A stretch of DNA of 52,421 nucleotides from Candidatus Iainarchaeum sp. (GCA_043812975.1 JBDRLP010000001.1:1-52421); one strand, 5' to 3'. Shown: positions 10,954 to 42,600, counted from the stretch's first letter. Notes: generated from the letters alone by a model not told the origin. Numbers and translations are program-made.

Positions 10954-11415
10954 CTAGTTCATACTAATTATAAGTTTGTTAATTTCTTCTCCTCGATAGC
11001 CAAGTGCTCCACCTACTGTGAATGGCTTTTTTATACCTGCTCTCTTGTGTCCTTTTCTGGGAGGATGTAATCTTATCACAGGAACAATTCCTAAATCCTT
11101 AAGTTTTACTTTTCCTTCGATAACACTTTTAGCTAATTCTTCAAAGCTGTTAATTTTCTTTTCTTTTAAAAATTCAAGTATAATTTTCTTTTTGCCTTCT
11201 AATCTTCCTCTTTTTGCAAGAACCTTTGTAAGAGTTTCTTCGTTTATTTCCCCGAAAGCAACGTAATCTTTTATTTTTTCAACCATTTTTTTGGAAGGGT
11301 TATCATCTTTGACCAAAACCATGTGGTTTGGTCTGAACAATCTTAAATTTTCCATAGTGTATGTTAAACTAGGGTTAACGTTCACAGTTCCTCTTATTCT
11401 AATAACTGCTATCAT
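10954..11415 (-). CDS. rpl30: 50S ribosomal protein uL30
   Basis: IAVIRIRG, RLHPPRKG, GALGYRGEEINKLI. Confidence 0.96.
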   Translation of the reverse strand: MIAVIRIRGTVNVNPSLTYTMENLRLFRPNHMVLVKDDNPSKKMVEKIKDYVAFGEINEETLTKVLAKRGRLEGKKKIILEFLKEKKINSFEELAKSVIEGKVKLKDLGIVPVIRLHPPRKGHKRAGIKKPFTVGGALGYRGEEINKLIISMN

Positions 11416-11501
11416 CTTTTAGCCTCCAATTCAACAGTTGCGTCTGTTGGGTACGCATACGTCCACCCTATCTGCGATAGGGTATAAATATTCAAATTCA
11501 T
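11412..11501 (-). CDS. Bridge mini-ORF, 29 aa (MNLNIYTLSQIGWTYAYPTDATVELEAKR)
   Basis: ATG overlaps the uS5 stop (ATGA); its TGA overlaps the uL30 ATG. Translation is inferred, not shown. Confidence 0.5.
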   Translation of the reverse strand: MNLNIYTLSQIGWTYAYPTDATVELEAKR

Positions 11502-11517
11502 CTTTTAGCCTCCAATT
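11412..11517 (+). repeat. Junction element (11432-11497) flanked by a 20-bp direct repeat of the uS5/uL30 junction
   Basis: TCATCTTTTAGCCTCCAATT at 11412-11431 and 11498-11517. Hairpins CAACAG-TTGCGT-CTGTTG and ACCCTATC-TGC-GATAGGGT. Confidence 0.92.
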
Positions 11518-12211
11518 TAGTGCTAATGTCATCTGAAACTCTGACCCTGCTTGTTGCAGCCAAAGCATCAATTGCAGCCTGAACAAAGTCTAAAGTTGAA
11601 GCAGTGTTTCCTTCACTTTTACTCCAAACATCTCTGATTCCAGCAAACTCTAGAACTGCCTTAATGTTATCCCCCGCAACCAAACCAGTTCCTTTTGGAG
11701 CTGGTAAAAGTTTTACTCTTACAGAGGATGATTTCCCTATAACATTAAATGGGACTGAGTGACTTTCTTTACATCTGCACTCCCAGCTTCCGCATGCTTT
11801 TCTTACTTTTTTAATGTTTAATTTTGCGTTTCTTGTTGCCTTGTTTATTGCTGGAAACTTTTCCTTGTCCTTAGCTGTACCTAAACCAATGTAAGATTGC
11901 CCGTCCCCGATAAGAACTGCTGCTCTGAATGAAAAATTTCTTCCCTGTCTTGTTACTTTTGTAGTTTTCTTAAAGTCAACCATTTTGTCTTTCAAATCAG
12001 GTACTAAAACATCAACTATTTGAGGTTCCATTATTCTGAAACCTTTTTTAAAGAAATCATCAAGGTTTGTTATTTTGTCTGCTTTAACTAATTTTCCAGC
12101 TTCTGTTTTTGGAACCCAGTCTGAAACAACCTTTACCCTGTCTTCTTCTTTTCTTATAAGTCTTTCTTCTTCAGTTTGTACTCTTCTTGGTCTTCTGGCC
12201 ATTTTACTCAC
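11498..12211 (-). CDS. rps5: 30S ribosomal protein uS5
   Basis: WVPKTEAGKLV, CGSWECRC, RVKLLPAPKGTGLVAG. Confidence 0.97.
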   Translation of the reverse strand: MSKMARRPRRVQTEEERLIRKEEDRVKVVSDWVPKTEAGKLVKADKITNLDDFFKKGFRIMEPQIVDVLVPDLKDKMVDFKKTTKVTRQGRNFSFRAAVLIGDGQSYIGLGTAKDKEKFPAINKATRNAKLNIKKVRKACGSWECRCKESHSVPFNVIGKSSSVRVKLLPAPKGTGLVAGDNIKAVLEFAGIRDVWSKSEGNTASTLDFVQAAIDALAATSRVRVSDDISTKLEAKR

Positions 12212-12713: not shown

Positions 12714-13150
12714 TTTTTAGCCTCCCCTACCATTGCTTGAACATACTTCTTTCCCTTGAAGTATCCTCCTTTAATCATCAAATAAATCTGTCTTGCTGGT
12801 TTTTTCAGTTTAACACCGCTTTCTTTCATTTCTTTCAGAACTCTTCTTTGAGCTCTGACATTCTTAATCCATTTTTCTTTCTTGTTGGATCTTGCGTTTT
12901 TCTTTCCTGTTCTTTTACCATGGCCTTTTTTTCTTCCTTTCTTTTTCTTTGCTTTTAAGACTCTGGCCTTTGATTTGCTCTGAAGATTATCCTTTCTTTT
13001 TTTGATAACTCCATCTTTGATAAGTATTCTGACATCCTCTTTTGTCATGGCTTCTTTAACTTTTTGTCCTTCGCTTGGACTGATGTATACTTTGGTTTTC
13101 CCAATCTTGAGGAGTGCTGCTGTGATTGTTTTTGCTTTTTTGTTATCCAT
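12710..13150 (-). CDS. rpl19e: 50S ribosomal protein eL19
   Basis: AMTKEDVRILIKDGVI, GHGKRTGKKNAR, KWIKNVRAQRR. Confidence 0.96.
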   Translation of the reverse strand: MDNKKAKTITAALLKIGKTKVYISPSEGQKVKEAMTKEDVRILIKDGVIKKRKDNLQSKSKARVLKAKKKKGRKKGHGKRTGKKNARSNKKEKWIKNVRAQRRVLKEMKESGVKLKKPARQIYLMIKGGYFKGKKYVQAMVGEAKK

Positions 13151-13265
13151 TAACGGACACCTCCGTTAGCGAGGTGTGCACCTCATTGCAAAACCTTCGG
13201 TTTTGCGATGCCCCGTATCCGAAGGATACAAGGTTGGTAGCACATACATAAAGTTTCAAATTCAT
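13143..13265 (-). CDS. Bridge mini-ORF, 40 aa (MNLKLYVCATNLVSFGYGASQNRRFCNEVHTSLTEVSVNG)
   Basis: ATG overlaps the eL32 stop; TAA overlaps the eL19 start (ATGGATAA). Confidence 0.45.
   Translation of the reverse strand: MNLKLYVCATNLVSFGYGASQNRRFCNEVHTSLTEVSVNG
13151..13261 (+). repeat. Junction element with SD-containing hairpins between eL32 and eL19
   Basis: CACCTCCG...GAGGTGTGCAC...GTAGCAC shared with the copies at 39044 and 40958. Nested GCAAAACC-TTC-GGTTTTGC and GTATCC-GAA-GGATAC hairpins. Confidence 0.85.
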
Positions 13266-13897
13266 GGGTTTAACACCTTGATTCCTTTTTCTATTGCCTT
13301 GTCAACTATTGCCAGTTTTTTCTTTCTTCCGAGTCCTGAAGCAACTCTTATTGCGTGTTTGTCAGGAACATTGTTTATTTCCTGGATTGTTTTAACATTA
13401 AATTCTCTATATCCGCTTGGGTGAATGTCCCTAATTTCTTTAGGCGTCCTGAAACCCTCTTTTGGGGTATAACCATCACACATTTCGTGCTTTACGTCAA
13501 TTCCTCTTGGGAATCTCCATTTGTTCCACTTCGGGTTACTTTTCTTTCTAAGGCTTCTTTTTCCAAACCTTCCTCTGAAAGTAGGAGTTCCCTGTTTCTG
13601 GTTAACTTTTCTTCTTGTTTTAGCAACCGCAGCGTCGGTTTTAATTTGAACCTTTCTGCTCTTTTTCACTTTCTTTGGTTTTGCTTCTTTTGAATCTTTA
13701 ACTACCGTTGCGTCGGTAGGGTGCGCGTCCGCCTTCGGCAGGACTGCTTTAACATCTTTTTTAGCATCAGTTTTTTTTGTTTTAGTTTTAGGTGCAGCTG
13801 CTTTAATTTTCTCTTTAACAGCAACCTTTGCTTTAGGTTTTTCTTTTACTGTTTCTGCTTTTTTAGTTTCTTTTTTTTCTGTTTTCTTTTTAACCAT
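13262..13897 (-). CDS. rpl32e: 50S ribosomal protein eL32 with about 95 aa Lys-rich N-terminal extension
   Basis: PTFRGR, KWRFPRGID, IRDIHPSGYRE. Confidence 0.95.
   Translation of the reverse strand: MVKKKTEKKETKKAETVKEKPKAKVAVKEKIKAAAPKTKTKKTDAKKDVKAVLPKADAHPTDATVVKDSKEAKPKKVKKSRKVQIKTDAAVAKTRRKVNQKQGTPTFRGRFGKRSLRKKSNPKWNKWRFPRGIDVKHEMCDGYTPKEGFRTPKEIRDIHPSGYREFNVKTIQEINNVPDKHAIRVASGLGRKKKLAIVDKAIEKGIKVLNP
13696..13753 (+). repeat. Palindromic element copy, in frame in eL32 (AVLPKADAHPTDATV), flanked by 7-bp direct repeats
   Basis: CTTTAAC at 13696-13702 and 13747-13753; insert plus one repeat is 51 nt (17 codons). CTACCG-TTGCGT-CGGTAG and GTCCGCC-TTC-GGCAGGAC hairpins. Confidence 0.9.
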
Positions 13898-13907
13898 TTC
13901 AATTCAC

Positions 13908-14447: not shown

Positions 14448-14457
14448 TTTTAATCAC

Positions 14458-14850: not shown

Positions 14851-14865
14851 CCAAAATCATCTCCT

Positions 14866-15024: not shown

Positions 15025-15533
15025 TCTACTTCAACCCCGAACTTTTCCTTTACAAAATCTATTGCCTCGTTTTGATGAATCAAGTGTGAATGTAAAATCT
15101 TTGACTTGCCAATTTTTCTTCTTTTAATCCTGTAACCAGGTCTTTCCAAAGTAACCAATACATCAAACCCCTTGATTCCGAGCTTTGGATCATACTTTGC
15201 TTTTGGTAAATCAATATATTCTTTTACTCCAAATCCGAAATTTCCCTGTTTGTCAAAACTCTTTTTCTTTATCTTCTTATCTTTTGCAAGGAATGCTTCA
15301 GTAAGGAATATCTCTGCTTTGTTTCCTCTAAGTGTAACTTTTGTGCCGATAGTTAATCCTGGTCTTAAACCCCAGTCAGGTTGTTTAACCTTACACTTTG
15401 TTAGTGTTGGCTTTGCTCCTGTAACTTTTTCGAGAATAGTCGTAGCTTTCTTTAATTCTTCACCTTTCTGACCAACACCCATGTTGATTGTGACTTTCTC
15501 TACTTTGATTTTTTTCATTTTATTATCCGCCAT
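15021..15533 (-). CDS. rpl5: 50S ribosomal protein uL5
   Basis: [36 protein letters not shown]. Confidence 0.97.
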
Positions 15534-15680
15534 AATAATCACTCTGCTTCCACCGTTGCGTCACCCTTGCGGGTACTCCCTTCGGTCGCGGCGGAGTACG
15601 CGTCCATCTCGCCCGTTAGGGATGGACTCGGTAGGACTTGCTCATTTCGTTTGCATTTCACCATAATAATCACTCTGCTT
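15530..15680 (+). repeat. Composite junction element (15550-15660) flanked by a 20-bp direct repeat of the eS4/uL5 junction
   Basis: CCATAATAATCACTCTGCTT at 15530-15549 and 15661-15680; contains several family modules. Confidence 0.92.
15539..15664 (-). CDS. Bridge mini-ORF, 41 aa (MVKCKRNEQVLPSPSLTGEMDAYSAATEGSTRKGDATVEAE)
   Basis: Starts at the ATG of the upstream repeat copy and ends exactly at the duplicated eS4 stop. Confidence 0.5.
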   Translation of the reverse strand: MVKCKRNEQVLPSPSLTGEMDAYSAATEGSTRKGDATVEAE

Positions 15681-16398: not shown

Positions 16399-16837
16399 CT
16401 TCTTTCACCTTCTCCTTTTTATTTGCTTTAACTTCTGTTTTTGCCCCTGCACCCTCACGGGTATTCCCTTTGGTCACAATTTTTTTACCTTTTAATCTTC
16501 TGTCATCTTTATCCTCAATATTTACAATCATCAAATTACTCGCTTTGAAAGGAATCTGAATTTCAGTGCCGTCTAATCTTTTTCTTGTTATTCCTTCAAT
16601 AAGCACCTGTCTTTTTTGTCTTAAAATTGCAGTAATATGCCCCTGCTTTCCGACAAACTTTTCATTCCCTCTCATTATCTTTACTGTGTCTCCTTTTCTT
16701 CCATCCAGACTTCTTTTTCCAATGCTTTCCTTCAATTCCTTGCTTAAGTGCATTGCGAATTCTTTTTGCTGTAAGTGTAATGGTTTGGTGTAATGCCATT
16801 TTCTCTGTTTTTTTGGTTTTGAACTTGTTAATGTCAT
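16388..16837 (-). CDS. rpl24: 50S ribosomal protein uL24
   Basis: SSKPKKQRK, RKGDTVKIMRG, PFKASNLMI. Confidence 0.96.
   Translation of the reverse strand: MTLTSSKPKKQRKWHYTKPLHLQQKEFAMHLSKELKESIGKRSLDGRKGDTVKIMRGNEKFVGKQGHITAILRQKRQVLIEGITRKRLDGTEIQIPFKASNLMIVNIEDKDDRRLKGKKIVTKGNTREGAGAKTEVKANKKEKVKEDGK
16444..16477 (+). repeat. Short palindromic element copy, in frame in the uL24 tail (VTKGNTREGAG)
   Basis: CCCCTGCACCCTCACGGGTATTCCCTTTGGTCAC is the 21444 copy lacking its middle hairpin. Confidence 0.8.
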
Positions 16838-16838
16838 T

Positions 16839-18120: not shown

Positions 18121-18122
18121 TC

Positions 18123-18335: not shown

Positions 18336-18340
18336 AAAAA

Positions 18341-19198
18341 TCACTCTTTTTTATCCTCAGCTTTTTCTTCTTTAACTTCTTCCTTTTTTTCTTCAGGCTT
18401 CTCTTCCTTTGCTGGTTTTTCCGCTTTTTTCTCTTCTTTTTTAGGTTCTTTCTTTTCCTTAACTTCAGTTTTTTCTTTAGTTTCCTTTACTTTTTTCTTC
18501 TTTTCTTCTTCTTTTGAAATTTCTTTAGTTGCATCTTTTGTTTCTTTTTCAGTTTCCTCAGTTTTTTCTTTTTGTACTTCGGAAGCTTCTTCTTTTCCTT
18601 TAATATAATCTGTAATCTTTTCCTTATCCGGGAAAACCGTGTCAGGATGCACAATTTTAATTTTAATCCCGATTGCTCCTACTTTAGGGTAAGCATCTGC
18701 TTTACCATAATCAACAAGTCTTGCTTGCTCTCCGACTTTTTTCAAATAACCATAAGCAATTCTCTGTTTTCTTTTTCTTCCCGCTTTTCCAGCAATCTTT
18801 CCGCTTAAAATAATTTCTAACCCCTGCGCTCCGGCTTTTTTGGTTTCGTTTACTGATTTAAACACAATACTTCTCCATGAGAATCCTCTTTCAATAAGAG
18901 CTTTCATCTTGTTTGCAACAGCTTGTGCATCAAGTTCAGGATTTTCAATTTCTCTAATCTCTAATTGCGGGTTATCAATGCCAAATCTGCTTCCGATTGT
19001 TTCTGTTAATTGTGTAATGTTGGAACCGCTTTTTCCGATTGCAAGCCCTGGTCTTGTAACATTAACAACAATTCTTGTTACTAATGGGGTTTTCACAATC
19101 TCTGATTTTGTAAAGCCGGCCCTTTCAAGTTCTTTTGAAAGATAATCGTCCAGTTCAAGTTTTTTTAATCCCTGTTCAATGAAATATTTTTCTATCAT
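18341..19198 (-). CDS. rps3: 30S ribosomal protein uS3 with Lys/Glu-rich C-terminal tail
   Basis: KTPLVTRI, RPGLAIGKSG, ERGFSWR; start at 19198 overlaps TAATG. Confidence 0.97.
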   Translation of the reverse strand: MIEKYFIEQGLKKLELDDYLSKELERAGFTKSEIVKTPLVTRIVVNVTRPGLAIGKSGSNITQLTETIGSRFGIDNPQLEIREIENPELDAQAVANKMKALIERGFSWRSIVFKSVNETKKAGAQGLEIILSGKIAGKAGRKRKQRIAYGYLKKVGEQARLVDYGKADAYPKVGAIGIKIKIVHPDTVFPDKEKITDYIKGKEEASEVQKEKTEETEKETKDATKEISKEEEKKKKVKETKEKTEVKEKKEPKKEEKKAEKPAKEEKPEEKKEEVKEEKAEDKKE

Positions 19199-19394
19199 TA
19201 TTTGGCCTCCATCCACAGTTTCGGCTGTGGGCTACGATAACCCAAGCTCCTTTCAGTCGCATGGGTTTGGCTCACTCCGTTCGCTATAATCATTATTTGG
19301 CCTCCATCCACAGTTTCGGCTGTGGGGTGCACGTACCATCTTCGCTTGTGCTCGATGCTACTTAAAATATTAAAAATCATTATTTGGCCTCCAT
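19194..19394 (+). repeat. Two tandem junction elements between three copies of a 19-bp uL22/uS3 junction
   Basis: ATCATTATTTGGCCTCCAT at 19194-19212, 19289-19307 and 19376-19394. Both inserts begin CCACAGTTTCGGCTGTGGG. Confidence 0.93.
19198..19380 (-). CDS. Bridge mini-ORF, 60 aa (MIFNILSSIEHKRRWYVHPTAETV...KLWMEAK)
   Basis: ATG overlaps the uL22 TAA; reads through both inserts; its TAA overlaps the uS3 ATG. Confidence 0.5.
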   Translation of the reverse strand: MIFNILSSIEHKRRWYVHPTAETVDGGQIMIIANGVSQTHATERSLGYRSPQPKLWMEAK

Positions 19395-20989: not shown

Positions 20990-21067
20990 TTATCTAACTC
21001 CAACGCCGTTTGCGATCGGCGGTACCGCGCCCACCTTTGGTAGGGCAGATGTATTTTTTATAGCCAT
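20990..21067 (-). CDS. Bridge mini-ORF, 25 aa ([25 protein letters not shown])
   Basis: ATG overlaps the uL23 TAA; its own TAA lies 1 nt before the uL2 ATG. Confidence 0.5.
   Translation of the reverse strand: MAIKNTSALPKVGAVPPIANGVGVR
21001..21047 (+). repeat. Junction element between uL23 and uL2
   Basis: CGCCG-TTTGCGAT-CGGCG plus GCCCACC-TTT-GGTAGGGC; closely matches the copy at 34207. Confidence 0.85.
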
Positions 21068-21546
21068 TATATTACACCTAACTTTGTAGCTATATCATCA
21101 GCTTTATATTTTTTGTCAATTGTAACAATTGCTTTCTTTCTTGATTTCATATCCTTAATGATGTTAACTGCGTTGACCTTAACTTTGTAAAGTCCTTCTA
21201 TTGATTTTTTTATGCTGATTTTATTAGCTTTTTTATCAACAATAAATGTAAGTTTGTTTTCTGCTTCAATCATGTTAACTGCTTTTTCTGTAATTAAAGG
21301 ATACTTAATAATTGTCAAACCTTCAATTTCTGCTTCAATTTCTTCTAAAGTTTTTTTCCCTTTCTTAACTTCCTTTTTCTTTTCTTTCTTTTCCTCTTTT
21401 TTATAATCTTCTTTTTTTGCTTCGGCTTTATGTGTGTGCTTTTCCCCTGCACCCTTACGGGTACCTTCGGCGGGACTTCCTTTGGTCGCAGCTTTCTTAG
21501 CTTCCTTTTTTGTTTTTACTTTTTTTTCTGTTTTTTTCTTAGCCAT
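21067..21546 (-). CDS. rpl23: 50S ribosomal protein uL23 with Lys/Glu-rich N-terminal extension
   Basis: [30 protein letters not shown]. Confidence 0.96.
21444..21491 (+). repeat. Palindromic element copy, in frame in uL23 ([16 protein letters not shown])
   Basis: GCACCCTTACGGGTACCTTCGGCGGGACT identical to the copy at 36326. Confidence 0.92.
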
Positions 21547-21556
21547 TTCAATTCAC

Positions 21557-22459
21557 CTAAGCTTTTGCCTCACCCGAGCGTGCTCTTCCTCTGCGAGGAC
21601 CTAAGGGTCGGGAGGGAGCGTCCACCTTCGGTAGGACTTCCTTTTTTACTTCTTTCTTTTCACCAGCTAATTGTTTAATTGCATTCTCTGACCAGAGAGT
21701 TAATCTTCCCGGTAGAGTTCCTGGTGCTAAAAGATCAGCATTAATATTAACCGCACTTATAATGTCAACCCCTTCAAGGTTTCTTGCTGCTTTGTAAACA
21801 TTCTCTGGGTTTTCAACTACAATCAAAACACTTTTTCTTTTCTTGTATTTTCTTCCTCTCTTTTTTCCTTTTCCAGGTCTTAATTGTCTTTTACTCAAAG
21901 CCTTTTCTACATCCTGATAAACATCAATTGCTTTCAAAGCATCTCTAATATCTTTTGTTTTTGCAAGGGTTTCAAGCTTTGCTTCAACAACAATCGGAAA
22001 CTCTAATTTTTCTCCAAACTTGTGGCCTCTTTCTTTTACTAATTCTTTTTTTCCTGTTGCTGCGATTGCTGATTCAGTTGCCTGTCTTTTTTCTTTTTTA
22101 TTTATTTTTTCTTCCCATTCTTTGTTTGGCTTTGGAGGGTGTGCTTTTGGGCCTCCAACAACAGCCGGAATACTAGCAACGTGTCCTGAAAGGATTCCTC
22201 TTCTGTTTTTCAATCTTGGCTTTCTAGCATGGCCAACGTTAATTGTTCTGTGAATATTAGGTTTGTGCCTAGCTCCGATATATTCCGCAGTGTTTGCCCT
22301 TCCTGCTTCAGGTTTAGGGAAACTGTTTTGAACACCAGCAGACTGAATTGCCTGCACTGCTCTTTTAATAAGTGCTAGATTAATATCCGCAGAGAACTGC
22401 TTTGGTAAAGTAATATCAGGACCTTTTGTCCCATCCAAACCTAAAACACTAGCTTTCAT
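21557..22459 (-). CDS. rpl4: 50S ribosomal protein uL4
   Basis: VVGGPKAHPPK, KINKKEKR, RPGKGKKRGRKYK, LLAPGTLPGRLT. Confidence 0.97.
   Translation of the reverse strand: MKASVLGLDGTKGPDITLPKQFSADINLALIKRAVQAIQSAGVQNSFPKPEAGRANTAEYIGARHKPNIHRTINVGHARKPRLKNRRGILSGHVASIPAVVGGPKAHPPKPNKEWEEKINKKEKRQATESAIAATGKKELVKERGHKFGEKLEFPIVVEAKLETLAKTKDIRDALKAIDVYQDVEKALSKRQLRPGKGKKRGRKYKKRKSVLIVVENPENVYKAARNLEGVDIISAVNINADLLAPGTLPGRLTLWSENAIKQLAGEKKEVKKEVLPKVDAPSRPLGPRRGRARSGEAKA
21571..21638 (+). repeat. Palindromic element copy, in frame at the uL4 C-terminus (EVLPKVDAPSRPLGPRRGRARSG)
   Basis: GCGTCCACC-TTC-GGTAGGACT module plus CCTC-TGC-GAGG hairpin. Confidence 0.85.
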
Positions 22460-23634
22460 TTTTTAGCCTCCTTAGGTTCTTTCTTTACTTCTTTTTTCTC
22501 AGAATCTTTCTTTAGCTCTTCTTTTTTTGCCTCAGATTTGTCTTCTTTCTTTTCAGATTTAGGTTTTTCTTCCTTGTGTTCAGGCTTTTTTTCTTTCTTT
22601 GGTTCTTCCTTAGTTTCTGCTTTTTCTTCTGTTCCAAATGGTAATTGTAAATCAGTGTACTTTGCTAGATTAAGGTCGCCTTTTCTGATTGCATGTCTTA
22701 ATGCAATTGTTCTTTTTGCAGGCCCTGGAACTGAACCAACTACAACAATAAAATCACTTTTCAAAACTCCGTAGTTTGTTAATCCTTGTGGTGGGCTTAT
22801 TGTTTTTGGATCGTTTTCAACAAAAAGAATCCTCTTGTTGTATTCTGTTCTTGTATGATATCCCATTTGTCCTGGTCTTGGAACCGTCCACATTACTGTT
22901 GCTGGATGCCATGGTCCTATTGATCCAACAGCCCTGTGTTTTTTTGCTTTAGGCCTCTGGATTTTAATTCCGAATCTTTTTACTGGCCCCTGAAATCCTT
23001 TTCCTTTGTTTACTGCTTTAACATCAATAAATTCCTGTGCTTCAAAAACATCATTAATCCTGATTTCTTTTCCAAATTTTTCTTTTGCAAATGCTAATTG
23101 CTGTTCAACAGTTCCGTTAAGATTAAGTTCTGCAACATCTGCTTTCTTTTTTCCAATCCCTGTTTGGCTTGGTTGTAATTCTGATAAAAGTACGACTTTT
23201 ACTGTTTTTTCCTTGAATTTTTCAAGGTCTTCAAATTTAGAATAAGTTTTCGCTTCTTTCTTCTTTTTTCCTTGTTTTTTGAAAGCTTTTATTTTTTCTC
23301 TTAAATGCTTTCCTGGCTTGTCAATAGTAGCTTCTCCTAAAACTTTTAAGCCATCGATTGTTTTCTTGTAAGCCCTAGCTCCGATGATTTTGATTGGCGG
23401 ACATTCAATAATAGTAGCAGGAATTGCTGTATCAACCCCGAAATTTACGCTCTTTTCGTGTGAGTTCTTGCCAAAAATAGTGATCATTCCTGCTTTAAAT
23501 CCAAAGAAATTGATTGGTTTTGAGGATTCTGTTTCGATAGTTGGATAAGTAGAAAAATTAGCTAATTGCCTCTTAGCCCTCACCCTTGGGTAATAAGCTA
23601 AGCTTCCTGATCTGGGTTTATGTCCTCCGGCTAT
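22456..23634 (-). CDS. rpl3: 50S ribosomal protein uL3 (start codon problematic)
   Basis: HKPRSGSLAYYPRVRA lies upstream of the tracked GTG 23583; GFKAGM, KGKGFQGPVKRFG, PRPGQMGYHTRTE. Best in-frame start candidate is ATA 23634. Confidence 0.93.
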   Translation of the reverse strand: MAGGHKPRSGSLAYYPRVRAKRQLANFSTYPTIETESSKPINFFGFKAGMITIFGKNSHEKSVNFGVDTAIPATIIECPPIKIIGARAYKKTIDGLKVLGEATIDKPGKHLREKIKAFKKQGKKKKEAKTYSKFEDLEKFKEKTVKVVLLSELQPSQTGIGKKKADVAELNLNGTVEQQLAFAKEKFGKEIRINDVFEAQEFIDVKAVNKGKGFQGPVKRFGIKIQRPKAKKHRAVGSIGPWHPATVMWTVPRPGQMGYHTRTEYNKRILFVENDPKTISPPQGLTNYGVLKSDFIVVVGSVPGPAKRTIALRHAIRKGDLNLAKYTDLQLPFGTEEKAETKEEPKKEKKPEHKEEKPKSEKKEDKSEAKKEELKKDSEKKEVKKEPKEAKK

Positions 23635-23805: not shown

Positions 23806-23885
23806 TTGTCCGACTTTAATGCTCACTGCAGTAAACGTTTGCCCAGACTGGTTGTGTATTGGGTTGGCGTTTATCTGTATTGGTA

Positions 23886-23903
23886 TGTATTTATAGGTTT
23901 CTT
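23886..23903 (-). promoter_or_regulatory. Second candidate BRE/TATA
   Basis: AAGAAACC-TATAAATA on the minus strand. Confidence 0.4.
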
Positions 23904-34186: not shown

Positions 34187-34342
34187 TTATCTGATTCTTA
34201 CTTCTTCAACGCCGCTTGCGATCGGCACCCTTACGGGCACATGCGGTACCGCGTCCACCTCACTTTGTTCGGTAGGACTTAGTTCCTTGTTCGCAAACTT
34301 TTTCTAATAATTCTTTTCATCACCTAATTCTTACTTCTTCAA
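34187..34342 (+). repeat. Composite junction element (34207-34294) between nusA and rps12, with a duplicated NusA C-terminus
   Basis: ATTCTTACTTCTTCAA at 34194-34209 and 34327-34342; modules shared with 21001 and 21444. Confidence 0.88.
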
Positions 34343-34733: not shown

Positions 34734-34739
34734 ATAATA

Positions 34740-35063: not shown

Positions 35064-36425
35064 TTATTTTTTCATTACAAGAGTTACCCTGCCTGTTCCA
35101 ACCTTAATAGGCTGACCAACTATAATGTTTTCAACAACACCTTCAAGAGTTTCTATTTCTCCCTTGAATGCTGCGTCTAACAAGTGTTTTACTGTTTCCT
35201 CAAATGCTGCTCTTGCGAAAGGACTTGCTTTTCCTCTTGTGATTCCTGTTCTTACAATTCCTCTGATTTCTCCGTCAAAGCACATTGAATCAGCTAATAG
35301 CATTATATGTCTTATGTCAACTGCAATACTATTATCCTTCAGAACTCCAGATAATTCATTTACAATCGCCATTCTTCCTGCTTCAATTCCCAATACTTTG
35401 CTGATTTCTTTAATGTCATTAGTGGTTGTTTTTGAACCATTAATTTCCGGCAGTTTCACAATTGCTTTTAAGTTAGTGCCTCTGGTTTTAATGACTTTCT
35501 CGTTGTTCTCATCTATAAGAATAACTTTTTCAATTCCTCTGATTCCCTGAATCCTTGTTGATTTCAGTTTGTTCATGGTTCTTCTGATTTTTAAAAGTGC
35601 TTCATTTTTGAAAATAAAATCAAGCAAATACTTGTCTTTTCTTTTCCCCTCCATCTTTATGTGCTTATTGATTTTTGCAACAAGCTCATCAATATCAACA
35701 TTTCTTGATTCGATTGCTTCCTTATCAAGTTCAATTGTAACTTTTCCCTTGAATAAATCTTCATGAATTTTAATAACATCATCAATTCTTACATCAATTA
35801 ATGTTTTTGCAAAAGCATCAAGTTTTTTCTCATCTTTATTTAATTCTTCATCATCGATGTAAATTGTCATTATAGGATATTTAGCTTTTAATCTCCCGTC
35901 AACAATTTCTTCAACCCTCTGGATTCCTGATCCAACACTTACTTCTGCAGAACCCGCATAGTGTTTTGTTCTAAGTGTCAATTGTGTTCCTGGTTCCCCA
36001 AGACTTTGTGCAGTAATAATTCCTACTGCTTCTCCAGGTTCAACCATGCTTTTTTCATATCTTTCTTTAACTTGTGAAAATAGTTTTTCTTTTTCCTTGT
36101 CATTAATTTTTAATTCATTAGCGACTGTTTCAAAATCCATTAATACTTTTTTAGGAATTCCTTCTGTTTCAAAAAGATCTCCTTGTACAAATACTCTTTC
36201 AACTTCCACTACTTCTTTTTTGGTTGTTTTTTTTGGTTTCTTAACTGTTTTAGTGGTTTTTTTAGCTGTGGGTTTTGCCTTTTCACTCTTATCTTTGGTT
36301 GTGGTCTTTTTCATAGTTTTCTTAACCCCAGCACCCTTACGGGTACCTTCGGCGGGACTCCTTTTGGTCGCTGCTTTTTTTGTTTCTTTCTTTTCTTTTT
36401 TCTTGGTTTCTTTTTTTGCAACCAT
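35064..36425 (-). CDS. rpoA2: RNA polymerase subunit Rpo1C (A'') with Lys/Thr-rich N-terminal extension
   Basis: [38 protein letters not shown]. Confidence 0.97.
36326..36372 (+). repeat. Palindromic element copy, in frame in Rpo1C ([16 protein letters not shown])
   Basis: Near-identical to the copy at 21444. Confidence 0.92.
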
Positions 36426-36430
36426 AAAAA

Positions 36431-39043
36431 TCACTTACTCCTCATTTTTTCGAGTTCCCTCTGAACTGAAATGCTTCTTCCCTTGAATGTTTTCTCCGGG
36501 AATATTCCGTCTTCACCATACTTGTACTGTATAATGTTCTTGTTAGCCGTCCTTACAGTTGAATCATTGTTAACAACAAGATCTTTCAGACTGTTTGCAA
36601 GTCTTCTGTATAAGTAACCAGAAACTTTTGTGGATACTCCTGTGTCTACTTCTCCTTGTCTTCCGCCCATTGCGTGGTAAAAGAATTCAAAGCTTGTCAT
36701 TCCTTCCATAAAGTTGTGGTAAATAAATCCGCCTGCGTCAATTCCTACATCGTTCTTATGGTTTAAAGCAATTAATCTGTTGGCGAATCCTCTTTTTGGT
36801 CTTCCTTCTCTTACAGAAGCCTGTCCCCACATTCCTGAGAGGTTTACAAGGTTGATTATGTTTCCTCTGGAACCTGAAAGTATCATCACATTGCTATCGT
36901 ACTCTGGTTCATCTATCAGGACACTGTCAACAATTTCTTTTTTGATTTGTTTTTCAAGTTTCCCTTTTGCTTCAGAAGCAGTTCTCATCATGCTAACTTC
37001 GAAACTCTCTTTTAGTGTTCTTCCCGGGATAAGTTCTAATGTTCCTTTTTCGTATTTCTTCACGTGTTCTTTTGCAATTTCAGCCATTTCTTCAACAGCT
37101 TTTTCTCTGATTTTCAGAACCTTTTGAGTTGGCTTGTATTCTTCTAAACTATTTGTCATTCCAACTTCAGTTATTAAAGTTGCAACCATTTTTGAAAGTG
37201 AATCATAAAAGTTTGTGATTACTTCAGGAGGATAATCCCTTGCTAAAGCATCAACAAGTTTTCCTCTTCCTTCTCCAAGGCTCATTGAGTCAATTACTCC
37301 TGATTTCAAAATGCCGTTTTCAATCTTAACAATAAGATCGTTCTTGTAAAGGTCCTTCAGCAAAGGGTGATTCTTATCAAGATCAGTTATAATTCCCATG
37401 AACTTGCTTTTGTATTCCATGTTAAGGTTTTTTGGAAGTAACTGTGAGAAAATAAGTTTTCCTGAATACTTGTCCTTACCAACATCCGGTTTTGGAATAT
37501 CCTTTAAGCCCATAATCTGGAAAAATCTGAATGCCCTGTCTTTATTGAAAACGGTTTGTTTCATTGTTAAAATGAAACTTGCTGAAACACCATCCTCATC
37601 CAGGATAATTACTGGTCCACCGTGTCTTGGTGAAATAATTTGTTTTTGTACAATCATTAGTTCTATTGCTTCTGAAATTCCTTCAGGAGTCTGTGGAACG
37701 TGCATGTTCATTTCGTCTCCATCAAAGTCTGCGTTGTATGGTTTACAAACAATAGGGTTCATCCTGAAAGTCTTGTCATCCATTATTCTTGCCCTGTGTG
37801 CCATCATTGATAATCTGTGCAGTGAAGGCTGCCTGTTAAACAAAACAATATCTCCGTTTCTGAGTTTTCTGTCTAACCTGTAACCAACATCAAGTTCTTC
37901 ATTAATCAGATCTATGTTTGTTTCAGCAACTTTTCTTCTCATCCCATCAGGTCTTGAAACATAAATTGCTCTTCCATCTTTAATCATTTTTTTAGCTTCA
38001 ACAATGTTGTTTTTTGTTACAATTTCAGGAACTGTCATTGTTTCTGCAATTTCGCTTGGAACACCAAGTTCGTTAATTGAAAGCATTGGGTCAGGAGTAA
38101 TAATAGACCTAGCCGCAAAATTAACTCTTTTTCCTGTTAAATTATATCTGAATCTTCCTTTCTTTCCCTGTAACCTTTGAACAAGTGTTCTTAGTGCACG
38201 TCCTGATCTGTGCTTTGCCGGCGGAACTCCCGCAGTGTTGTTATTGAAATAAGTTGTAACATGGTATTGTAACAAATCCCAAAGATCCTCAATAATAAGC
38301 TGAGGCGCTCCCGCATCAATGTTATCTTTTAATCTTATATTGATTCTGATAATATCTACAAGTTTGTGTGTTAAATCATCTTCACTTTTGATTCCTGATT
38401 CAAGTGTAATGCTTGGTCTCAAGTTTATTGGCGGAACCTGCAGAACAGTCATGATGAACCATTCAGGTCTTAAATCATTAAAGCCGTAACCAAAGAATTC
38501 AACATCTTTATCAGGAATTTTTTCCATCCATTCTCTGATTTCAGTAGGGTATATTCTATCTTTTTCCAAGTAAAAGTTGGTTGGTTTATCAAGGGTCACC
38601 AAGCCTCTTTCAACATTACAATGAGGGCACTTTTTTACCTTCTTGGTTCTTGTCAGGATTTTTTTCCCAATATCCATTGAGTCATCATCTATAAATGGCC
38701 TTAATTGTTCAAGTTTTTCTTCAGGAATAACTATTCTTCCACAATTCTGGCAGCTTGCCTGCATTAATATTTCCAGTTTTTTTCCAAATTCACTGTGAAT
38801 AATTGGTCTTACAACTTCTATGTGTCCAAAGTGACCTGGGCATTTTTTCATTGTGTTTCCGCAGGTCTTACATCTCAAACCTGGGTTTATAACACCTAAA
38901 TGATTATCCATTAATCCGCCTTCCATTGGGAAGCCATCTTTGTCATAAGTTTCAGGGCTTTTGATGTCTATTGCTGACATTTTCCTGATCATTTCAGGGC
39001 TCATAATGCTAAATTCAATTGATTTGATTCTTTTTGTCATCAT
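36431..39043 (-). CDS. rpoA1: RNA polymerase subunit Rpo1N (A')
   Basis: [25 protein letters not shown] catalytic motif. Confidence 0.98.
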
Positions 39044-39129
39044 TACGCGGTCACCTCCGCGTGTGAGGTGTGCACTTCGCTTGGGCTCAGTAGCACTGGC
39101 TCACATCCGTTCGCAAAATCATTTTTCAT
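39043..39129 (-). CDS. Bridge mini-ORF, 28 aa (MKNDFANGCEPVLLSPSEVHTSHAEVTA)
   Basis: ATG 4 nt after the rpoB' stop, with GGTG SD; its TAA overlaps the rpoA' ATG. Confidence 0.5.
   Translation of the reverse strand: MKNDFANGCEPVLLSPSEVHTSHAEVTA
39044..39115 (+). repeat. Junction element with SD-containing hairpins between rpoB' and rpoA'
   Basis: CACCTCCG..GAGGTGTGCAC..GTAGCAC plus CTCACATCCGTTCGC module. Confidence 0.85.
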
Positions 39130-39133
39130 ACAA

Positions 39134-40957
39134 TCACACCTTGTCATCCAATATAAGTTTTGGGTATACTCCCAGTGCTTTTAATTCATCTAATAATAAT
39201 TTGAAACCGTAACTCATCTCAACAGGATAAATCTTAGAATCATTTACTTCAAGAACTCTTTTTGTTTTTCTTAACTGATCCTCAAATCCAATTACTCCTG
39301 CGGTTTCTGAAACCCACATTGTTACTTTGTCAGAATCATCAATGAACTTTTCCTGCAATAACATTGCAGCTCCATGTCCTACTAATGTTTCACCTTCCAT
39401 CTCTCCAAACCTTAATCCGCCTTCTTTTTCTTTTCCTTCAGTTGGTTGTCTGGTTAATATCTGTACCGGGCCTCTTGCTCTTCCCTGTATTTTGTGTGCA
39501 GTCATGTGGAATAGTCTCCTGTATGAAACCATTCCTGTAAAAATTTCTCCGTGCATTCTTTGTCCGGTTGTTCCGTCGTAGAAAACTTCTTTTCCGTTTT
39601 TCTTGAATCCTGAGGTCTCAAGCATTTTTTCAATTTCATCCTCATTAACTCCTCCAAATGGAGTTCCGTCTATTTGTTTTCCTTTTATTGCTGCTGCTTT
39701 TCCGGCAAGCATTTCTAGTAAGTGTCCAATAGTCATCCTTGATGGGATTGAGTGAGGGTTCAAAATTAAATCAGGTTTAATTCCGTCTGGAGTAAATGGC
39801 ATGTCTTCCTCAGGAACAATTAATCCAACAACCCCTTTCTGGCCGTGTCTTGAACTGAACTTATCTCCTAATGCAGGAATCCTTTCACTTCTGATTTTAA
39901 TTTTAACAAGTTTATTTCCTGAGTCAGCTTCTGTAACAAATATTTTTTCAACATGACCTGCTTTTCCTTTTCTGATTGTAATGCTTGCTTCTCTTCTTTT
40001 TTCCTGAACAACACCAAATTCGTTAATCTCTTCTAAGAATCTTGGTGGTGAGGTTTTTCCTATAATAACATCACTTTCGGTTACGTAAGATTCAAGCTGG
40101 ATTAAACCATCTTCTCCAAGTTTTTTGTAATAATCCTCTCCTAAGTGTCCTACGGTGTCCTCAGGGGGTATTTCAAACTTGTCAATCTGTCCACCAGGAT
40201 ATCTGTTTTCTGAACTTTCGTAAGTTCTGTAGTAACTGCTTCTTCCCAGACCTCTGTCGATAGCTCCTTTGTTTAGGATAACAGCATCCAGAATATTGAA
40301 TCCATAGTACGGCATTATCGCTACTACGAAATTCTGGATTTGTGGTCTTTCATTCAAACCAATCATATCCATTGTTTTTGTTTTTACAAGTGACTTTTGC
40401 GGGTAATGAAGTAAATATCCTTCTGTATCTGTTCTTAATTTGTAATTGGCTGCACCAAATCCCTGGGCTTGTTTAAACATTTTTGCACCGTGTAATGCTT
40501 TTCCAGCCATGTTGTGTTCCAAGTATGGAATCATTGAACTCACAATACTCAGAATTACAGCTCCGTCAATTTCCAAATGAGTGTGTTCTTTAGTTAACTG
40601 ATCTTCAGTTGCAGCAATTAGTGCGTTTTCTTCTTCCTCTGAATCAAGGTATTCTATGTAACCTTGTTCAACGACATCATTCCAAATAAGCTTCCTTTCA
40701 TGGACCTGTTTAACAATGTCCTCTGTGATTGTTGGTTTTCCGTTTTCAACAACAAGCAGTGGCCTTTGTACACGTCCGGCATCTGTGTTGATGTAAACTT
40801 CATTGGTGTCTTCGTGGAATGCAACATTAACCTGTTCTGAAATTTTTGATTCTCTTCTTCTTGCAATTATTTCTTTTGTAAGTTTTATAGGGTCAGGGTG
40901 GAATCCGATTAGTCTTCCGTTAATGTAAACTTTTGCTTTTTTTGCTTCGCTAACCAT
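39134..40957 (-). CDS. rpoB1: RNA polymerase subunit Rpo2C (B')
   Basis: GDKFSSRHGQKG, PSRMTIG, GGLRFGEME; start at ATG 40957. Confidence 0.97.
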   Translation of the reverse strand: MVSEAKKAKVYINGRLIGFHPDPIKLTKEIIARRRESKISEQVNVAFHEDTNEVYINTDAGRVQRPLLVVENGKPTITEDIVKQVHERKLIWNDVVEQGYIEYLDSEEEENALIAATEDQLTKEHTHLEIDGAVILSIVSSMIPYLEHNMAGKALHGAKMFKQAQGFGAANYKLRTDTEGYLLHYPQKSLVKTKTMDMIGLNERPQIQNFVVAIMPYYGFNILDAVILNKGAIDRGLGRSSYYRTYESSENRYPGGQIDKFEIPPEDTVGHLGEDYYKKLGEDGLIQLESYVTESDVIIGKTSPPRFLEEINEFGVVQEKRREASITIRKGKAGHVEKIFVTEADSGNKLVKIKIRSERIPALGDKFSSRHGQKGVVGLIVPEEDMPFTPDGIKPDLILNPHSIPSRMTIGHLLEMLAGKAAAIKGKQIDGTPFGGVNEDEIEKMLETSGFKKNGKEVFYDGTTGQRMHGEIFTGMVSYRRLFHMTAHKIQGRARGPVQILTRQPTEGKEKEGGLRFGEMEGETLVGHGAAMLLQEKFIDDSDKVTMWVSETAGVIGFEDQLRKTKRVLEVNDSKIYPVEMSYGFKLLLDELKALGVYPKLILDDKV

Positions 40958-41015
40958 ATGCGGAGACCTCCGCATTCAGAGGTGTGCACCTGCGGTAGCA
41001 CCTATTAAAATTCAT
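40950..41015 (-). CDS. Bridge mini-ORF, 21 aa (MNFNRCYRRCTPLNAEVSAYG)
   Basis: ATG overlaps the rpoB'' stop; TAG overlaps the rpoB' start (ATGGTTAG). Confidence 0.45.
   Translation of the reverse strand: MNFNRCYRRCTPLNAEVSAYG
40958..41000 (+). repeat. Junction element with SD-containing hairpins between rpoB'' and rpoB'
   Basis: ATGCGGAG-AC-CTCCGCAT and GAGGTGTGCACC..GTAGCAC. Confidence 0.85.
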
Positions 41016-42478
41016 TTAAGTTTCACTCCCATGTCGTTCAATAATTTTTCAACTGGGTCTTCTTCAGTTTCAGTTGTTACTTCTGCAAGCATTGCCAAAT
41101 TTTTTACCAAACCACATTGTGGTCCGTCAGGAGTTTCTACAGGGCATAGTCTTCCCCAGTGGGTTCCGTGAACGTCCCTTGCTTCATAAAGTTCTCTGTT
41201 TTTGTCAAGCGGGCTCTTAACTTTTCTCAGGTCAGTTAATGGAGATAAATAATTAACTCTGTCCATGAACTTTGAAACCCCAGTAGCCCTGCCAATCCAG
41301 TTTCCTGTACTCATAGCAAACCTGATTCTTTCTGATACTGCGCCCGGCCTTACAATAGTTGAAATGTTAAGTTTTCTTCTTCTTGTAACAGTTCTGTCAA
41401 TCTGGAATTTCAAATCTTTAATGAAATATTTGAACGAGTACCTGAATAAGTGTTCCATTAATTTTCCTGACAATTCCAGTCTTTTGTTAGCATAATGGTC
41501 CTTATCATCTTCTTCCCTTAAATCATAAGCTCTTTCAATTGCCTTAGTTGCCATCATAACCAAGTAATATGCTTTAGCAAGCCTGTCTTTTGAATCCTGT
41601 CCAATGTGCGGTAACAGGAAAGCATCTATTACTTCCTGTGCTCTTCTAAGCCTGTACTCTTCCACCTGCCCTGGTGCGACAAATTTCCCGATTTTGTCAA
41701 GAGCTTCTTTTTCAGATTTTACTAATAAATTTTCATTATTAATCAGAACATCATTTTGTACTTCCATTTCATCAACAAAAGCATCCTTAATTGACTGTGA
41801 TGTTTTGATTCCGAGTGCTTTCAGTAAAACAAATAGTTTTAATTTTCTTGGTGAAGCCGGGAAGGTAACATGCAGGAGTCCATCTGGGCTTCTTAAGATT
41901 CTTACTCTTCCTTTGAAAGCGCCTTTAGTTGAGATAACTTCTGCAACAATTTTATCTGTCTGTTCTGAAACAATAACTCTGTCAGAAGCTAAAACTTCCT
42001 GAGTCATCAAAGCTTTTTCAGAACCATTTACAATGAAGTAACCTCCAAAGTCCATTGGGTCTTCTTTTAATTCAATTAGTTCTTCTTTGGTTTTTCCGTT
42101 CAACCAGCAAAGATGACTTTTAAGCATTACGGGTAATTCGCCGATGTAAGTATCTTTCCGATCATGCTCAACATCTCTTCTCAGAAGTTTCATGGTTAAG
42201 TTAATAGGGCTTGAGTAGGTTCTGTTTCTCAGCCTTGCTTCTATTGGGTAGAATTCGTTTCTGGGTGAACCGTCAGCTTCAACAATTCTTGGTTTTAAAA
42301 TACTAATCTTGTCAAACTCAACTTTTACTTCCTCAATCTTAGGAACAACTTCTTTGTTTTCAGCAACAATTTCCGGAAGTTTCTTTTTAACAAACTGGTT
42401 GAAAGAATCAATTTCCATCTGGGCAATATTTCTGTCTCTGAAATAAGAATTGATTAGGGTCCAGCCGTTAATAGCCAT
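41012..42478 (-). CDS. rpoB2: RNA polymerase subunit Rpo2N (B'')
   Basis: IDSFNQFV, EARLRNRTYS, GYFIVNGSEK, HWGRLCPVETP; start at ATG 42478 with GAGGTG SD. Confidence 0.97.
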   Translation of the reverse strand: MAINGWTLINSYFRDRNIAQMEIDSFNQFVKKKLPEIVAENKEVVPKIEEVKVEFDKISILKPRIVEADGSPRNEFYPIEARLRNRTYSSPINLTMKLLRRDVEHDRKDTYIGELPVMLKSHLCWLNGKTKEELIELKEDPMDFGGYFIVNGSEKALMTQEVLASDRVIVSEQTDKIVAEVISTKGAFKGRVRILRSPDGLLHVTFPASPRKLKLFVLLKALGIKTSQSIKDAFVDEMEVQNDVLINNENLLVKSEKEALDKIGKFVAPGQVEEYRLRRAQEVIDAFLLPHIGQDSKDRLAKAYYLVMMATKAIERAYDLREEDDKDHYANKRLELSGKLMEHLFRYSFKYFIKDLKFQIDRTVTRRRKLNISTIVRPGAVSERIRFAMSTGNWIGRATGVSKFMDRVNYLSPLTDLRKVKSPLDKNRELYEARDVHGTHWGRLCPVETPDGPQCGLVKNLAMLAEVTTETEEDPVEKLLNDMGVKLK

Positions 42479-42600
42479 TAAACAACCACCTCGCCGTTTT
42501 CCCACTTCGTGGACTTCGCGACCGGCGGCACCGAAGCACACTGCTTCGCAGTGGGCGTGCTCGCTTCGCTCGCAAAATAATTGCCGATTATACAACCACC
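42477..42600 (+). repeat. Junction element (42492-42573) between rpoH and rpoB'', flanked by a 14-bp near-perfect duplication
   Basis: ATTA(A/T)ACAACCACC at 42477-42490 and 42587-42600. Hairpins CCAC-TTC-GTGG and CACTGC-TTC-GCAGTG; CTCGCTTCGCTCGC module. Confidence 0.88.

Follow-up and report, generated by a model that had tools for sequence, protein, structure and literature searches.

GC-rich hairpin repeats at gene junctions of Candidatus Iainarchaeum ribosomal protein and RNA polymerase operons are mostly bridged by open mini-reading frames

Mycobacterial interspersed repetitive units (MIRUs) were reportedly described by Supply et al. in 1997. According to two articles, they are mobile mycobacterial units of 40-100 bp, which insert at start codons in operons, carry an internal open reading frame (ORF) whose coupling to the downstream gene is at -4 nt, and occur as filled and empty sites between species (PMC12548453; PMC3184786). 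Here we analyse a 52,421-nt stretch of DNA from Candidatus Iainarchaeum sp. (GCA_043812975.1 JBDRLP010000001.1:1-52421), called the window in the following, in which GC-rich hairpin repeats lie at junctions between ribosomal protein and RNA polymerase genes. At seven of nine such junctions the insert is spanned by an uninterrupted mini-ORF. The explanation which we consider probable, on the basis of the sequence patterns, is that only inserts keeping ribosomes translating across the junction survive. An earlier note on this DNA recognised no described system of this kind; that statement does not hold, since MIRUs are described likewise (PMC12548453; PMC3184786).

The comparison with MIRUs goes far. 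Both are short dispersed repeats within polycistronic operons, with filled and empty sites and insertion at start codons; in both, the ends of the internal ORF overlap the flanking stop and start codons, and GC-rich inverted repeats and occasional tandem units are present. Thus operon location, an ORF abutting start and stop codons, and filled and empty sites, the features of a MIRU-like functional class, were all found. On the other hand, the tetranucleotide direct repeats at the insertion site which belong to the MIRU family proper were not found, the archaeal duplications being 3-41 nt long. The host is an archaeon of the DPANN group, and a sequence relationship is not evident, although the two were not compared base by base. 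Furthermore, the archaeal elements are modular with nested hairpins, occur also in frame inside proteins and in one antisense array, and form GC-rich islands in an AT-rich genome. Membership in the mycobacterial family is implausible because of the archaeal host. By analogy, the elements appear to work like MIRUs without being members of the MIRU family.

Other described systems share single aspects. Termination-reinitiation at native overlapping gene pairs was reportedly studied by Huber et al. in 2019 and 2023. The ancestral junctions considered here are of the same type (-4, -1 or 0-5 nt), and a mini-ORF recreates two of them in series; relay through an inserted mini-cistron, in contrast to native pairs, is said not to have been studied there in archaea. 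Repetitive extragenic palindromic (REP) sequences and bacterial interspersed mosaic elements (BIMEs) are also GC-rich stem-loops that are co-transcribed in operons. REPs, however, are extragenic, are not translated, and are believed to owe their mobility to RAYT transposases, with no duplication of the target, while the archaeal elements are predicted to be translated and are flanked by long duplications. Yeast mitochondrial GC clusters are mobile GC-rich elements of an AT-rich mitochondrial genome. Mitochondrial GC-rich hairpin elements resemble the archaeal ones in having spread in an AT-rich, gene-dense genome, with some copies in coding regions (PMC2800124); they differ in being organellar, and a role in translational coupling is not described for them. 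Finally, Rickettsia palindromic elements (RPEs) are palindromic repeats which lie in frame in protein genes and are tolerated as extra segments (PMC3184786), and in-frame copies of the archaeal elements were found in the Lys/Glu-rich tails of uS4, uS13, eL32, uL23, uL4, uL24 and rpoA''. RPEs are not described as intercistronic bridges, and their host, sequence and size (about 105-146 bp) differ (PMC3184786). In the literature we found no described element of this kind in DPANN, Iainarchaeota or other archaea. The concept is precedented by MIRUs; the archaeal family differs in host, in its long variable duplications and in its in-protein copies.

The window has a GC content of 36% and contains two minus-strand clusters with Pfam-confirmed gene names, namely rpoH-B''-B'-A'-A''-eL30-nusA-uS12-uS7-EF2-EF1a-uS10 and a long uL3...uL15-SecY ribosomal-protein cluster. 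Its nearest public relatives are labelled Candidatus Iainarchaeum or Diapherotrites (DPANN group), and our census covered the window and about 30 related loci (designated L001 and so on). Tight junctions are common in this material: 259 of 377 junctions between adjacent conserved genes overlap or are at most 15 nt apart. A scan for GC islands (at least 57% GC within 40 nt) recovered every junction named in the earlier note, here numbered J1 to J9 (Table 1), together with islands in protein tails and one at 49.7 kb.

All seven mini-ORFs that had been claimed at J1 to J7 are uninterrupted and translate cleanly (Table 1). In each, the ATG lies within -3 to +6 nt of the last base of the upstream stop codon, and the terminating stop codon begins between -8 and +5 relative to the downstream start codon. 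In all seven, only the frame of the ATG is open; the remaining two frames hold 2-6 stops. At J4 three target copies are separated by two different inserts of 68 and 76 nt (J4a and J4b), which share the terminal hairpin CCACAGCCGAAACTGTGG. The earlier note had it that the frame lands on the duplicated stop wherever a duplication exists, nusA excepted, and this needs restriction: J2, J6 and J7 have little or no duplication, that at J5 is degenerate, and the J4a frame lands on a duplicated ATG.

The two remaining junctions behave differently. J8 has ATC at 42586-42588 and no ATG at its 5' end; as noted earlier, the ATC frame is open to the duplicated TAA, which overlaps the rpoB'' ATG at 42478. 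The ATC need not be a decayed ATG, as the duplication may simply stop short of the G of ATG. From TTG 42595 onwards, the frame that is in phase with rpoB'' is open too. J9 is indeed not bridged, as it contains only a 13-codon ORF (34279-34320) and stops in all three frames. Its description as a frameshifted ninth bridge does not fit, though: the duplication sits within the 3' end of nusA and excludes the uS12 start, and uS12 retains its own spacer and Shine-Dalgarno (SD) sequence. In relatives this spacer measures 20-50 nt (L006, L007) or only 5 nt (L032). A tenth copy, at 49.7 kb, is flanked by a perfect 41-nt duplication of the last 13 codons of a dCMP-deaminase-like gene; it has no co-directional gene downstream (the neighbour is convergent) and also carries stops in all three frames. 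It is homologous to J4a, but in the frame that J4a keeps open a nested hairpin introduces TAG and TGA. These two window copies without a tightly coupled downstream dependent, J9 and the 49.7-kb copy, thus provide an internal control.

The alignment to sister genomes proposed in the earlier note confirms that the inserts are genuine, since empty sites were found in four relatives. L001 and L008 represent Ca. Iainarchaeum ARS1427 (eS4 92% identical), and in L002, whose contig covers only J3-J5, eS4 is 88% identical. At the DNA level the window is 86-91% identical to these three, and the alignments break exactly at J1-J5. Neighbouring alignment blocks share a stretch as long as the duplicated target, so that the sisters hold a single target copy and no insert. 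The J1 insert is absent in L001 and L008 (single ATGA junction), the J2 site in L001 is only a 9-nt spacer, and the inserts of J3, J4 and J5 are absent in L001 and L002. The empty sister junctions are classic coupled ones: ATGA at uS5/uL30, TGA plus 5 nt at eS4/uL5, TAAATG or TAATG at uL22/uS3, and TAA plus 1-2 nt at uL23/uL2. The fourth relative, L005 (a JGI contig with 95.5% DNA identity), contains the J6 insert with one substitution and lacks the J7 insert, having a 24-nt AT-rich spacer ending in TAA instead. Because sister genomes have no inserts and a single target copy, J1-J5 and J7 are lineage-specific insertions.

Similar polymorphism was found elsewhere. The genes rpoH and rpoB'' have adjacent stop and start codons in L033 and L007, and L032 is 99.9% identical to L033 over 21.6 kb except for a 216-222-nt insert at this junction, which belongs to the layout called type A below. 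It is flanked by a 7-nt duplication (ATGKTTA) and contains a 76-codon ORF, which begins in a TAATG overlap and ends with TAA 5 nt into rpoB''. Judged from these comparisons, the inserts are recent insertions of a modular family of short GC-rich hairpin repeats (about 40-220 nt). The J7 leader (40976-41015) differs from the L005 spacer (540-575) at about 6 of 20 positions. Among the differences is a change of TAA to TGA that gives the mini-ORF its ATGA start, and compensation following the insertion may account for this. The idea that an AT-rich leader is a constant part of the insert was dropped, as it fails at J7, where the leader resembles the ancestral L005 spacer.

Elements were found at at least 12 junctions in relatives, and independent bridged inserts are listed in Table 1. 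In L030 an array of about 385 nt (3616-4062) is antisense to its two flanking minus-strand genes and is flanked by a duplication of about 27 nt, which comprises the downstream gene's start and first nine codons. Read on the gene strand, it contains an ORF of 137 codons, which begins at the duplicated ATG and finishes with a TGA that overlaps the true ATG, while the other frames have 5 and 8 stops.

To quantify bridging, we used 23 non-redundant junctions, each having a gap of 35 nt or more with a GC-rich island in it (at least 12 points above the GC content of the locus). For strict bridging, an ATG had to lie at -4 to +8 relative to the upstream stop, and a stop codon had to begin at -9 to +6 relative to the downstream start; as a control, 1 or 2 nt were deleted at every interior position of the same sequences. 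Strict bridging was found at 7 of 9 junctions in the window and 15 of 23 overall, while 0.67 and 2.64, respectively, were expected from the frameshifted versions, which bridge only about 12% of the time. Expected counts are given in place of a Poisson-binomial P for the strict test, some null probabilities being zero. Under a lenient definition, 18 of 23 junctions were bridged, whereas dinucleotide shuffles placed in random phase gave an expectation of 6.8 (P about 1e-8), and in the window alone 7 of 9 compared with 3.2 (P about 2e-3). The chance level of one third named in the earlier note is likewise exceeded (7 of 9, P = 0.008). Among 28 long spacers without a GC-rich element five were bridged, four with gaps of at most 49 nt and one by a 71-aa ORF in L030. 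This last ORF (L030 11828-12043) is hydrophobic and not GC-rich, bridges rpoB'/rpoA', and starts with the 13-mer ATGAATTTGAAAC of the J2 mini-ORF.

Table 1. Inserts, mini-ORFs and in-protein copies in the window, and bridged inserts in related loci (bottom)
Feature	Position	Strand	Downstream start set by homology	Description
J1 uS5/uL30	11412..11517	-	uL30 11415	perfect 20-nt duplication, copies 11498-11517 and 11412-11431 (AATTGGAGGCTAAAAGATGA), 66-nt insert 11432-11497
J1 mini-ORF	11412-11501	-		29 aa, from duplicated ATG to duplicated TGA overlapping uL30 ATG (ATGA)
J2 eL32/eL19	13143..13265	-	eL19 13150	type-A element GTGCTACC...GGTGCACACCTC...AACGGAGGTGTCCGTTAATGG with own Shine-Dalgarno-like GGAGGTG
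J2 mini-ORF	13143-13265	-		40 aa, from ATGA overlap at eL32 stop to TAA 5 nt inside eL19; no clear duplication
J3 eS4/uL5	15530..15680	-	uL5 15533	perfect 20-nt duplication (15661-15680, 15530-15549), 111-nt insert 15550-15660
J3 mini-ORF	15539-15664	-		41 aa, ends on duplicated eS4 TGA, 5 nt ahead of uL5 ATG
J4 uL22/uS3	19194..19394	-	uS3 19198	19-nt target in three copies (19376-19394, 19289-19307, 19194-19212)
J4 mini-ORF	19198-19380	-		60 aa over both inserts, middle ATG in frame, ends with TAA overlapping uS3 ATG
J5 uL23/uL2	20990..21067	-	uL2 20988	insert of about 70 nt, degenerate junction duplication
J5 mini-ORF	20990-21067	-		25 aa, from ATG overlapping uL23 TAA to TAA 1 nt before uL2 ATG
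J6 rpoB'/rpoA'	39043..39129	-	rpoA' 39043	type-A element ending ...CGCGGAGGTGACCGCGTAATG; 28-aa mini-ORF, TAA overlaps rpoA' ATG
J7 rpoB''/rpoB'	40950..41015	-	rpoB' 40957	short type-A element; 21-aa mini-ORF, from ATGA overlap to TAG 5 nt into rpoB' (true ATG 40957)
J8 rpoH/rpoB''	42477..42600	-		14-nt duplication (42587-42600, 42477-42490; one mismatch), 96-nt insert
J9 nusA/uS12	34191..34342	-		19-nt duplication (34324-34342, 34191-34209; one mismatch), 114-nt insert
Tenth copy	49680..49855	-		94-nt insert (49721-49814) right after stop of dCMP-deaminase-like gene
uS4 C-terminal Lys/Glu-rich tail copies	6419..6740 (about 6457-6510, 6691-6756)	-		in frame, stop-free
uS13 N-terminal extension copy	7797..7881	-		AVLPKADA...STDATV; also in L001
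eL32 N-terminal extension copy	13692..13759	-		39-nt insertion relative to L001
uL24 C-terminal tail copy	16447..16479	-		different module pair at the same site in L001 (9940-9982)
uL23 N-terminus and uL4 C-terminus copies	21431..21646	-		45 nt (uL23) and 51 nt (uL4), multiples of 3; absent in L001
rpoA'' N-terminal extension copy	36316..36379	-		same module as uL23 copy
Lys/Glu-rich extension regions	6400-7900, 13700-13900, 18340-18600, 21370-21640, 22460-22630, 36220-36420	-		low-complexity
L004 uS19/uL22				two units, 65 codons, bridged
L004 L34e junction				40 codons, bridged
L004 uS13/uS4				14 codons, bridged
L006 B''/B'				37 codons, bridged
L006 B'/A'				69 codons, called gene, bridged
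L007 uS12/uS7				32 codons, ends on duplicated stop
L027 uL23/uL2				43 codons; type-A element of window J2/J6/J7 at a different junction
L030 B''/B'				31 codons, bridged
L034 nusA/uS12				67 codons, bridged
L035 B''/B'				24 codons, bridged
L032 B'/A'				runs to duplicated stop
L035 uS12/uS7				runs to duplicated stop

Several observations indicate what is conserved in the bridges. J4a and J4b read an identical 38 nt in two frames (PTAETV and PQPKLW), the core of the type-A elements is read as ...EVHTS... (J2, J6) or ...RCTPL... (J7, L027, L032), and bridge peptides at the same junction of different genomes are unrelated. Because identical modules are read in different frames, openness is conserved and the peptide is not. 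For the same reason we do not follow the suggestion that the mini-ORFs are de novo microprotein genes. The proposed reuse of the in-protein frames (PTDATV, VLPK, GTRKG) does apply to J1, J3, J4a and J5, while J4b uses another frame and type A two frames. One predicted mini-ORF peptide is, for example, MNLNIYTLSQIGWTYAYPTDATVELEAKR.

Copies inside proteins (Table 1) are all stop-free multiples of 3. The window-specific indels among them measure 39, 45, 51 and 66 nt and lie in Lys/Glu-rich tails of ribosomal proteins; the uS4 tail copies are absent in L001, and their indels sum to multiples of 3. The uS13 copy is older, because it is common to L001. In the uL24 tail the window has a GTREG-type module and L001 has VLPK and PTAATV-type modules, which suggests a hot spot of repeated gain or replacement. 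Long Lys/Glu-rich N- and C-terminal extensions encoded by low-complexity AAAGAA repeats are present on many ribosomal proteins and rpoA'' and host the in-frame GC-rich modules.

The elements are composed of recurring modules. At the 5' side there is an AT-rich stretch, often with ATG(R)(W)TTTGA; further modules are TGCGAACGGAGTGAGC, GTCCTRCCGAAGGYGGAC and ATCGAG...CGAAGAT, and a terminal hairpin module CNACNG-[AC]CG[CA]AA-CNGTNG adjoins the downstream duplication. The type-A layout is GTGCTACC-(variable hairpins)-GGTGCACACCTC-N-CGGAGGTGNCCG-(T)AATG, with a perfect SD sequence and overlapping stop and start codons at the 3' end. The inserts fold as strings of hairpins, the minimum free energies lying between -18 and -48 kcal/mol (z-scores -0.4 to -4.1). 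The stem of the terminal hairpin covaries, with double changes at 3 of 6 pairs in sequences pre-selected for pairing. A hairpin module NNATCGAG-(loop or hairpin)-CGAAGATNN is conserved at 19308-19375 and 49721-49814 (minus strand) of the window and in L004, L007, L030 and L032; it has a 2x3 GA/GAA internal loop reminiscent of a kink-turn, and is possibly a protein-binding motif. A reading of the ATCGAG...CGAAGAT module as a kink-turn was rejected, since the Watson-Crick register leaves the 2x3 GA/GAA loop, which is not a canonical K-turn.

As to the mode of movement, the 3' hairpin end is precise, the 5' end is variable, and hairpins are nested in hairpin loops. The duplication lengths across cases are 7, 14, 19, 20, 20, 19, about 27 and 41 nt. 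All 45 module regex matches in the window and relatives are on the operon DNA strand, including those of the L030 array among opposite-strand genes, and element orientation may thus follow the chromosome or replication strand and not gene direction. Given the ends, duplications, nesting and strand bias, movement would be unlike ordinary transposition of insertion sequences (IS) or MITEs (miniature inverted-repeat transposable elements). The insert ends (e.g. ATTTGAAT... and ...CAACTGTTG) are not complementary and the duplications not of fixed length, which led us to discard a MITE, and no parent IS was seen in the window. REP/RAYT elements (35-bp palindromes with a GTAG/CGTC head) do not fit either, as the duplications are long and GTAG starts only two modules (J4a and the 49.7-kb copy). 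A bulge-helix-bulge (BHB) intron, a CRISPR-like mini-array, a casposon (14-15 bp duplications), an integron attC site and a C/D-box small RNA were weighed on sequence and dropped because of direct flanks, variable duplication length, the translated-frame constraint or missing boxes. In two motif scans of viral contigs the only match was a chance one within a phage-like protein (L037), and the VLPK module matched nowhere; there was no sign of a viral source.

The mechanism that we propose for the survival of the inserts is as follows. Insertion duplicates a target of 3-41 nt, typically the last codons, stop, SD sequence and start of a tightly coupled gene pair. Because the target is duplicated, the upstream copy keeps the native stop and a start with SD, and the downstream copy keeps a stop and the native SD and start. 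If insert plus duplication have the right length modulo 3 and the frame contains no stop, a mini-cistron would arise. Ribosomes ending the upstream gene would re-initiate on it, pass the hairpins, terminate at or near the true start and re-initiate again. Many copies also have their own 5' ATG(R)(W)TTTGA, and type A has its own GGAGGTG-stop-start 3' end. In these essential operons copies would persist in three settings only: in frame and without stops in disordered Lys/Glu-rich protein tails, as bridged mini-cistrons at coupled junctions, and at sites without dependent downstream translation. The peptide would be irrelevant and translation itself kept, as it would preserve termination-reinitiation, melt hairpins which abut or (in type A) contain the downstream SD, and probably keep the RNA covered and so avoid polarity. 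The pattern could result from filtering after insertion, from pre-adaptation of an element that brings an ATG and an SD-stop-start end of its own, or from both. In Haloferax and E. coli reporters an untranslated spacer of about 20 nt almost abolishes termination-reinitiation (PMC10666635). Therefore, an untranslated hairpin cluster of 60-220 nt should uncouple the downstream gene, and a selective filter is plausible. Polarity in archaea has been attributed to FttA (PMC12548453). The earlier note had already proposed that an element survives only when it hands the ribosome on; the statistics and the relatives support the filter well, and from the same sequence statistics we infer the hand-over as its selective reason.

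Several points weigh against this explanation. Exceptions to bridging are J9, J8, which lacks a canonical start, and L007 B''/B', where the element together with about 140 nt of AT-rich sequence is unbridged. The strict definition was tuned on the window's own junctions, even though the relatives still give 8 of 14 compared with 2.0 expected. When only the phase is randomised under the lenient definition, the window alone is marginal (P about 0.04-0.11). Type-A copies are not fully independent, as they seem to bring their own start and SD-stop-start end, so that bridging is partly inherited design and not filtering case by case. Finally, the downstream genes keep their SD, so that independent initiation might suffice.

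An alternative which we hold only tentatively is an evolved translatable cassette that targets start codons and has bridging built in, as in the MIRU model. In favour of such a cassette, the 5' motif ATGRWTTTGA recurs at unrelated junctions and genomes (J1, J2, J7, L027, L004, L007, L032, L035; the 13-mer ATGAATTTGAAAC in L030), the 3' end CGCGGAGGTGACCGCGTA(A)TG of J6 recurs identically in L027 and L032, and the L032 insert, which is polymorphic and presumably young, already forms a perfect bridge of 76 codons. However, the stop comes from the duplicated target at J1, J3, J4b, L007, L035 and L032 B'/A', where the phase cannot be inherited because it is set by the length of insert plus duplication. 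Moreover, the same module serves in different frames, the L030 array forms its bridge in the opposite orientation, and unconstrained copies carry stops. A built-in bridge is compatible with, and not exclusive of, the survival filter. It is more speculative, and we think rather unlikely, that an archaeal mobile element has adapted to translation by its own ATG and SD-stop-start end, parasitises termination-reinitiation, and moves by an unusual mechanism, for which a process new to archaea, either target-primed or specific to the replication strand, would be a candidate. The strand bias also bears on the view that the elements act in cis through RNA or DNA structure (for example by stabilising mRNA, as processing sites, as hairpins that bind proteins or as replication-related palindromes), the open frames being incidental to GC-richness: matches on one strand regardless of local gene direction suggest a DNA- or replication-level property, and strong hairpins in an AT-rich genome and stem covariation are in line with it. 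We nevertheless judge this view improbable, since GC-richness leaves the phase unexplained, the other two frames being interrupted and frameshifted versions seldom bridging, and Rfam gave no match to any insert, whether at the gathering threshold or with E<=5. A structural role and a translated bridge do not, in any case, exclude each other.

The other possibilities fare worse. That the mini-ORFs are functional small-protein genes, for example for ribosome- or polymerase-associated microproteins, could be argued from the match with in-protein frames at J1, J3, J4a and J5 and from gene callers annotating such ORFs in relatives. We regard it as very unlikely, because the J4a/J4b and type-A modules are read in differing frames and same-junction peptides are unrelated; in addition, no precomputed Pfam family is assigned to the mini-ORFs called in relatives, and sister genomes do without mini-ORFs. 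Intron-like excision from RNA between the direct repeats, which would restore the junction exactly and make frames irrelevant, is hardly credible: neither the stop-free multiples of 3 in proteins nor the phase constraint at junctions would be needed if the inserts were excised, no Rfam intron family matched, and no bulge-helix-bulge pairing is evident between the flanks because these are direct repeats and not complementary. Chance or an assembly artefact might be suspected, as GC-rich sequence has few stops and the window offers nine junctions only. Given that the J6 insert recurs in an independent assembly (L005), that filled and empty sites are polymorphic between independent assemblies, that the bridging statistics contradict chance and that the pattern is replicated in several other genomes, we virtually dismiss both.

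The survival of inserts by translational relay would be of interest for several reasons. It amounts to a natural experiment in which an uncultured DPANN lineage puts translational coupling to the test, with dozens of independent insertions into essential operons which were kept almost only when relayed, a pattern implying strong selection on termination-reinitiation or continuous ribosome coverage. It would extend the MIRU principle from mycobacteria to archaea and show a way for selfish repeats to settle in reduced, gene-dense genomes while leaving operons intact. At the practical level, it explains spurious 'hypothetical protein' calls between RNA polymerase (rpo) and ribosomal protein genes in metagenome-assembled genomes of Iainarchaeota, and J1, J3 and J4 are ready cassettes for relay-reinitiation reporters.

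Some further features of the locus were noted. A tRNA/tmRNA scan of the window gave a tRNA-Leu (5236-5321) as the sole match. Between RtcB and the uL3 operon there are a 615-aa ORF (23915-25762, minus strand) and a 125-aa ORF (25774-26151, minus strand), both without Pfam match. Upstream of uL3, L001 (899-2845) has about 1.9 kb of extra sequence which the window (23808-23888) lacks. The EF-2 gene (29364-33086, minus strand) encodes 1240 aa with an intein that includes a LAGLIDADG domain (Pfam Intein_splicing and LAGLIDADG_3), and in relatives inteins are present in rpoB'' (L006, L030, L034), rpoA' (L034) and apparently uS12 (L006).

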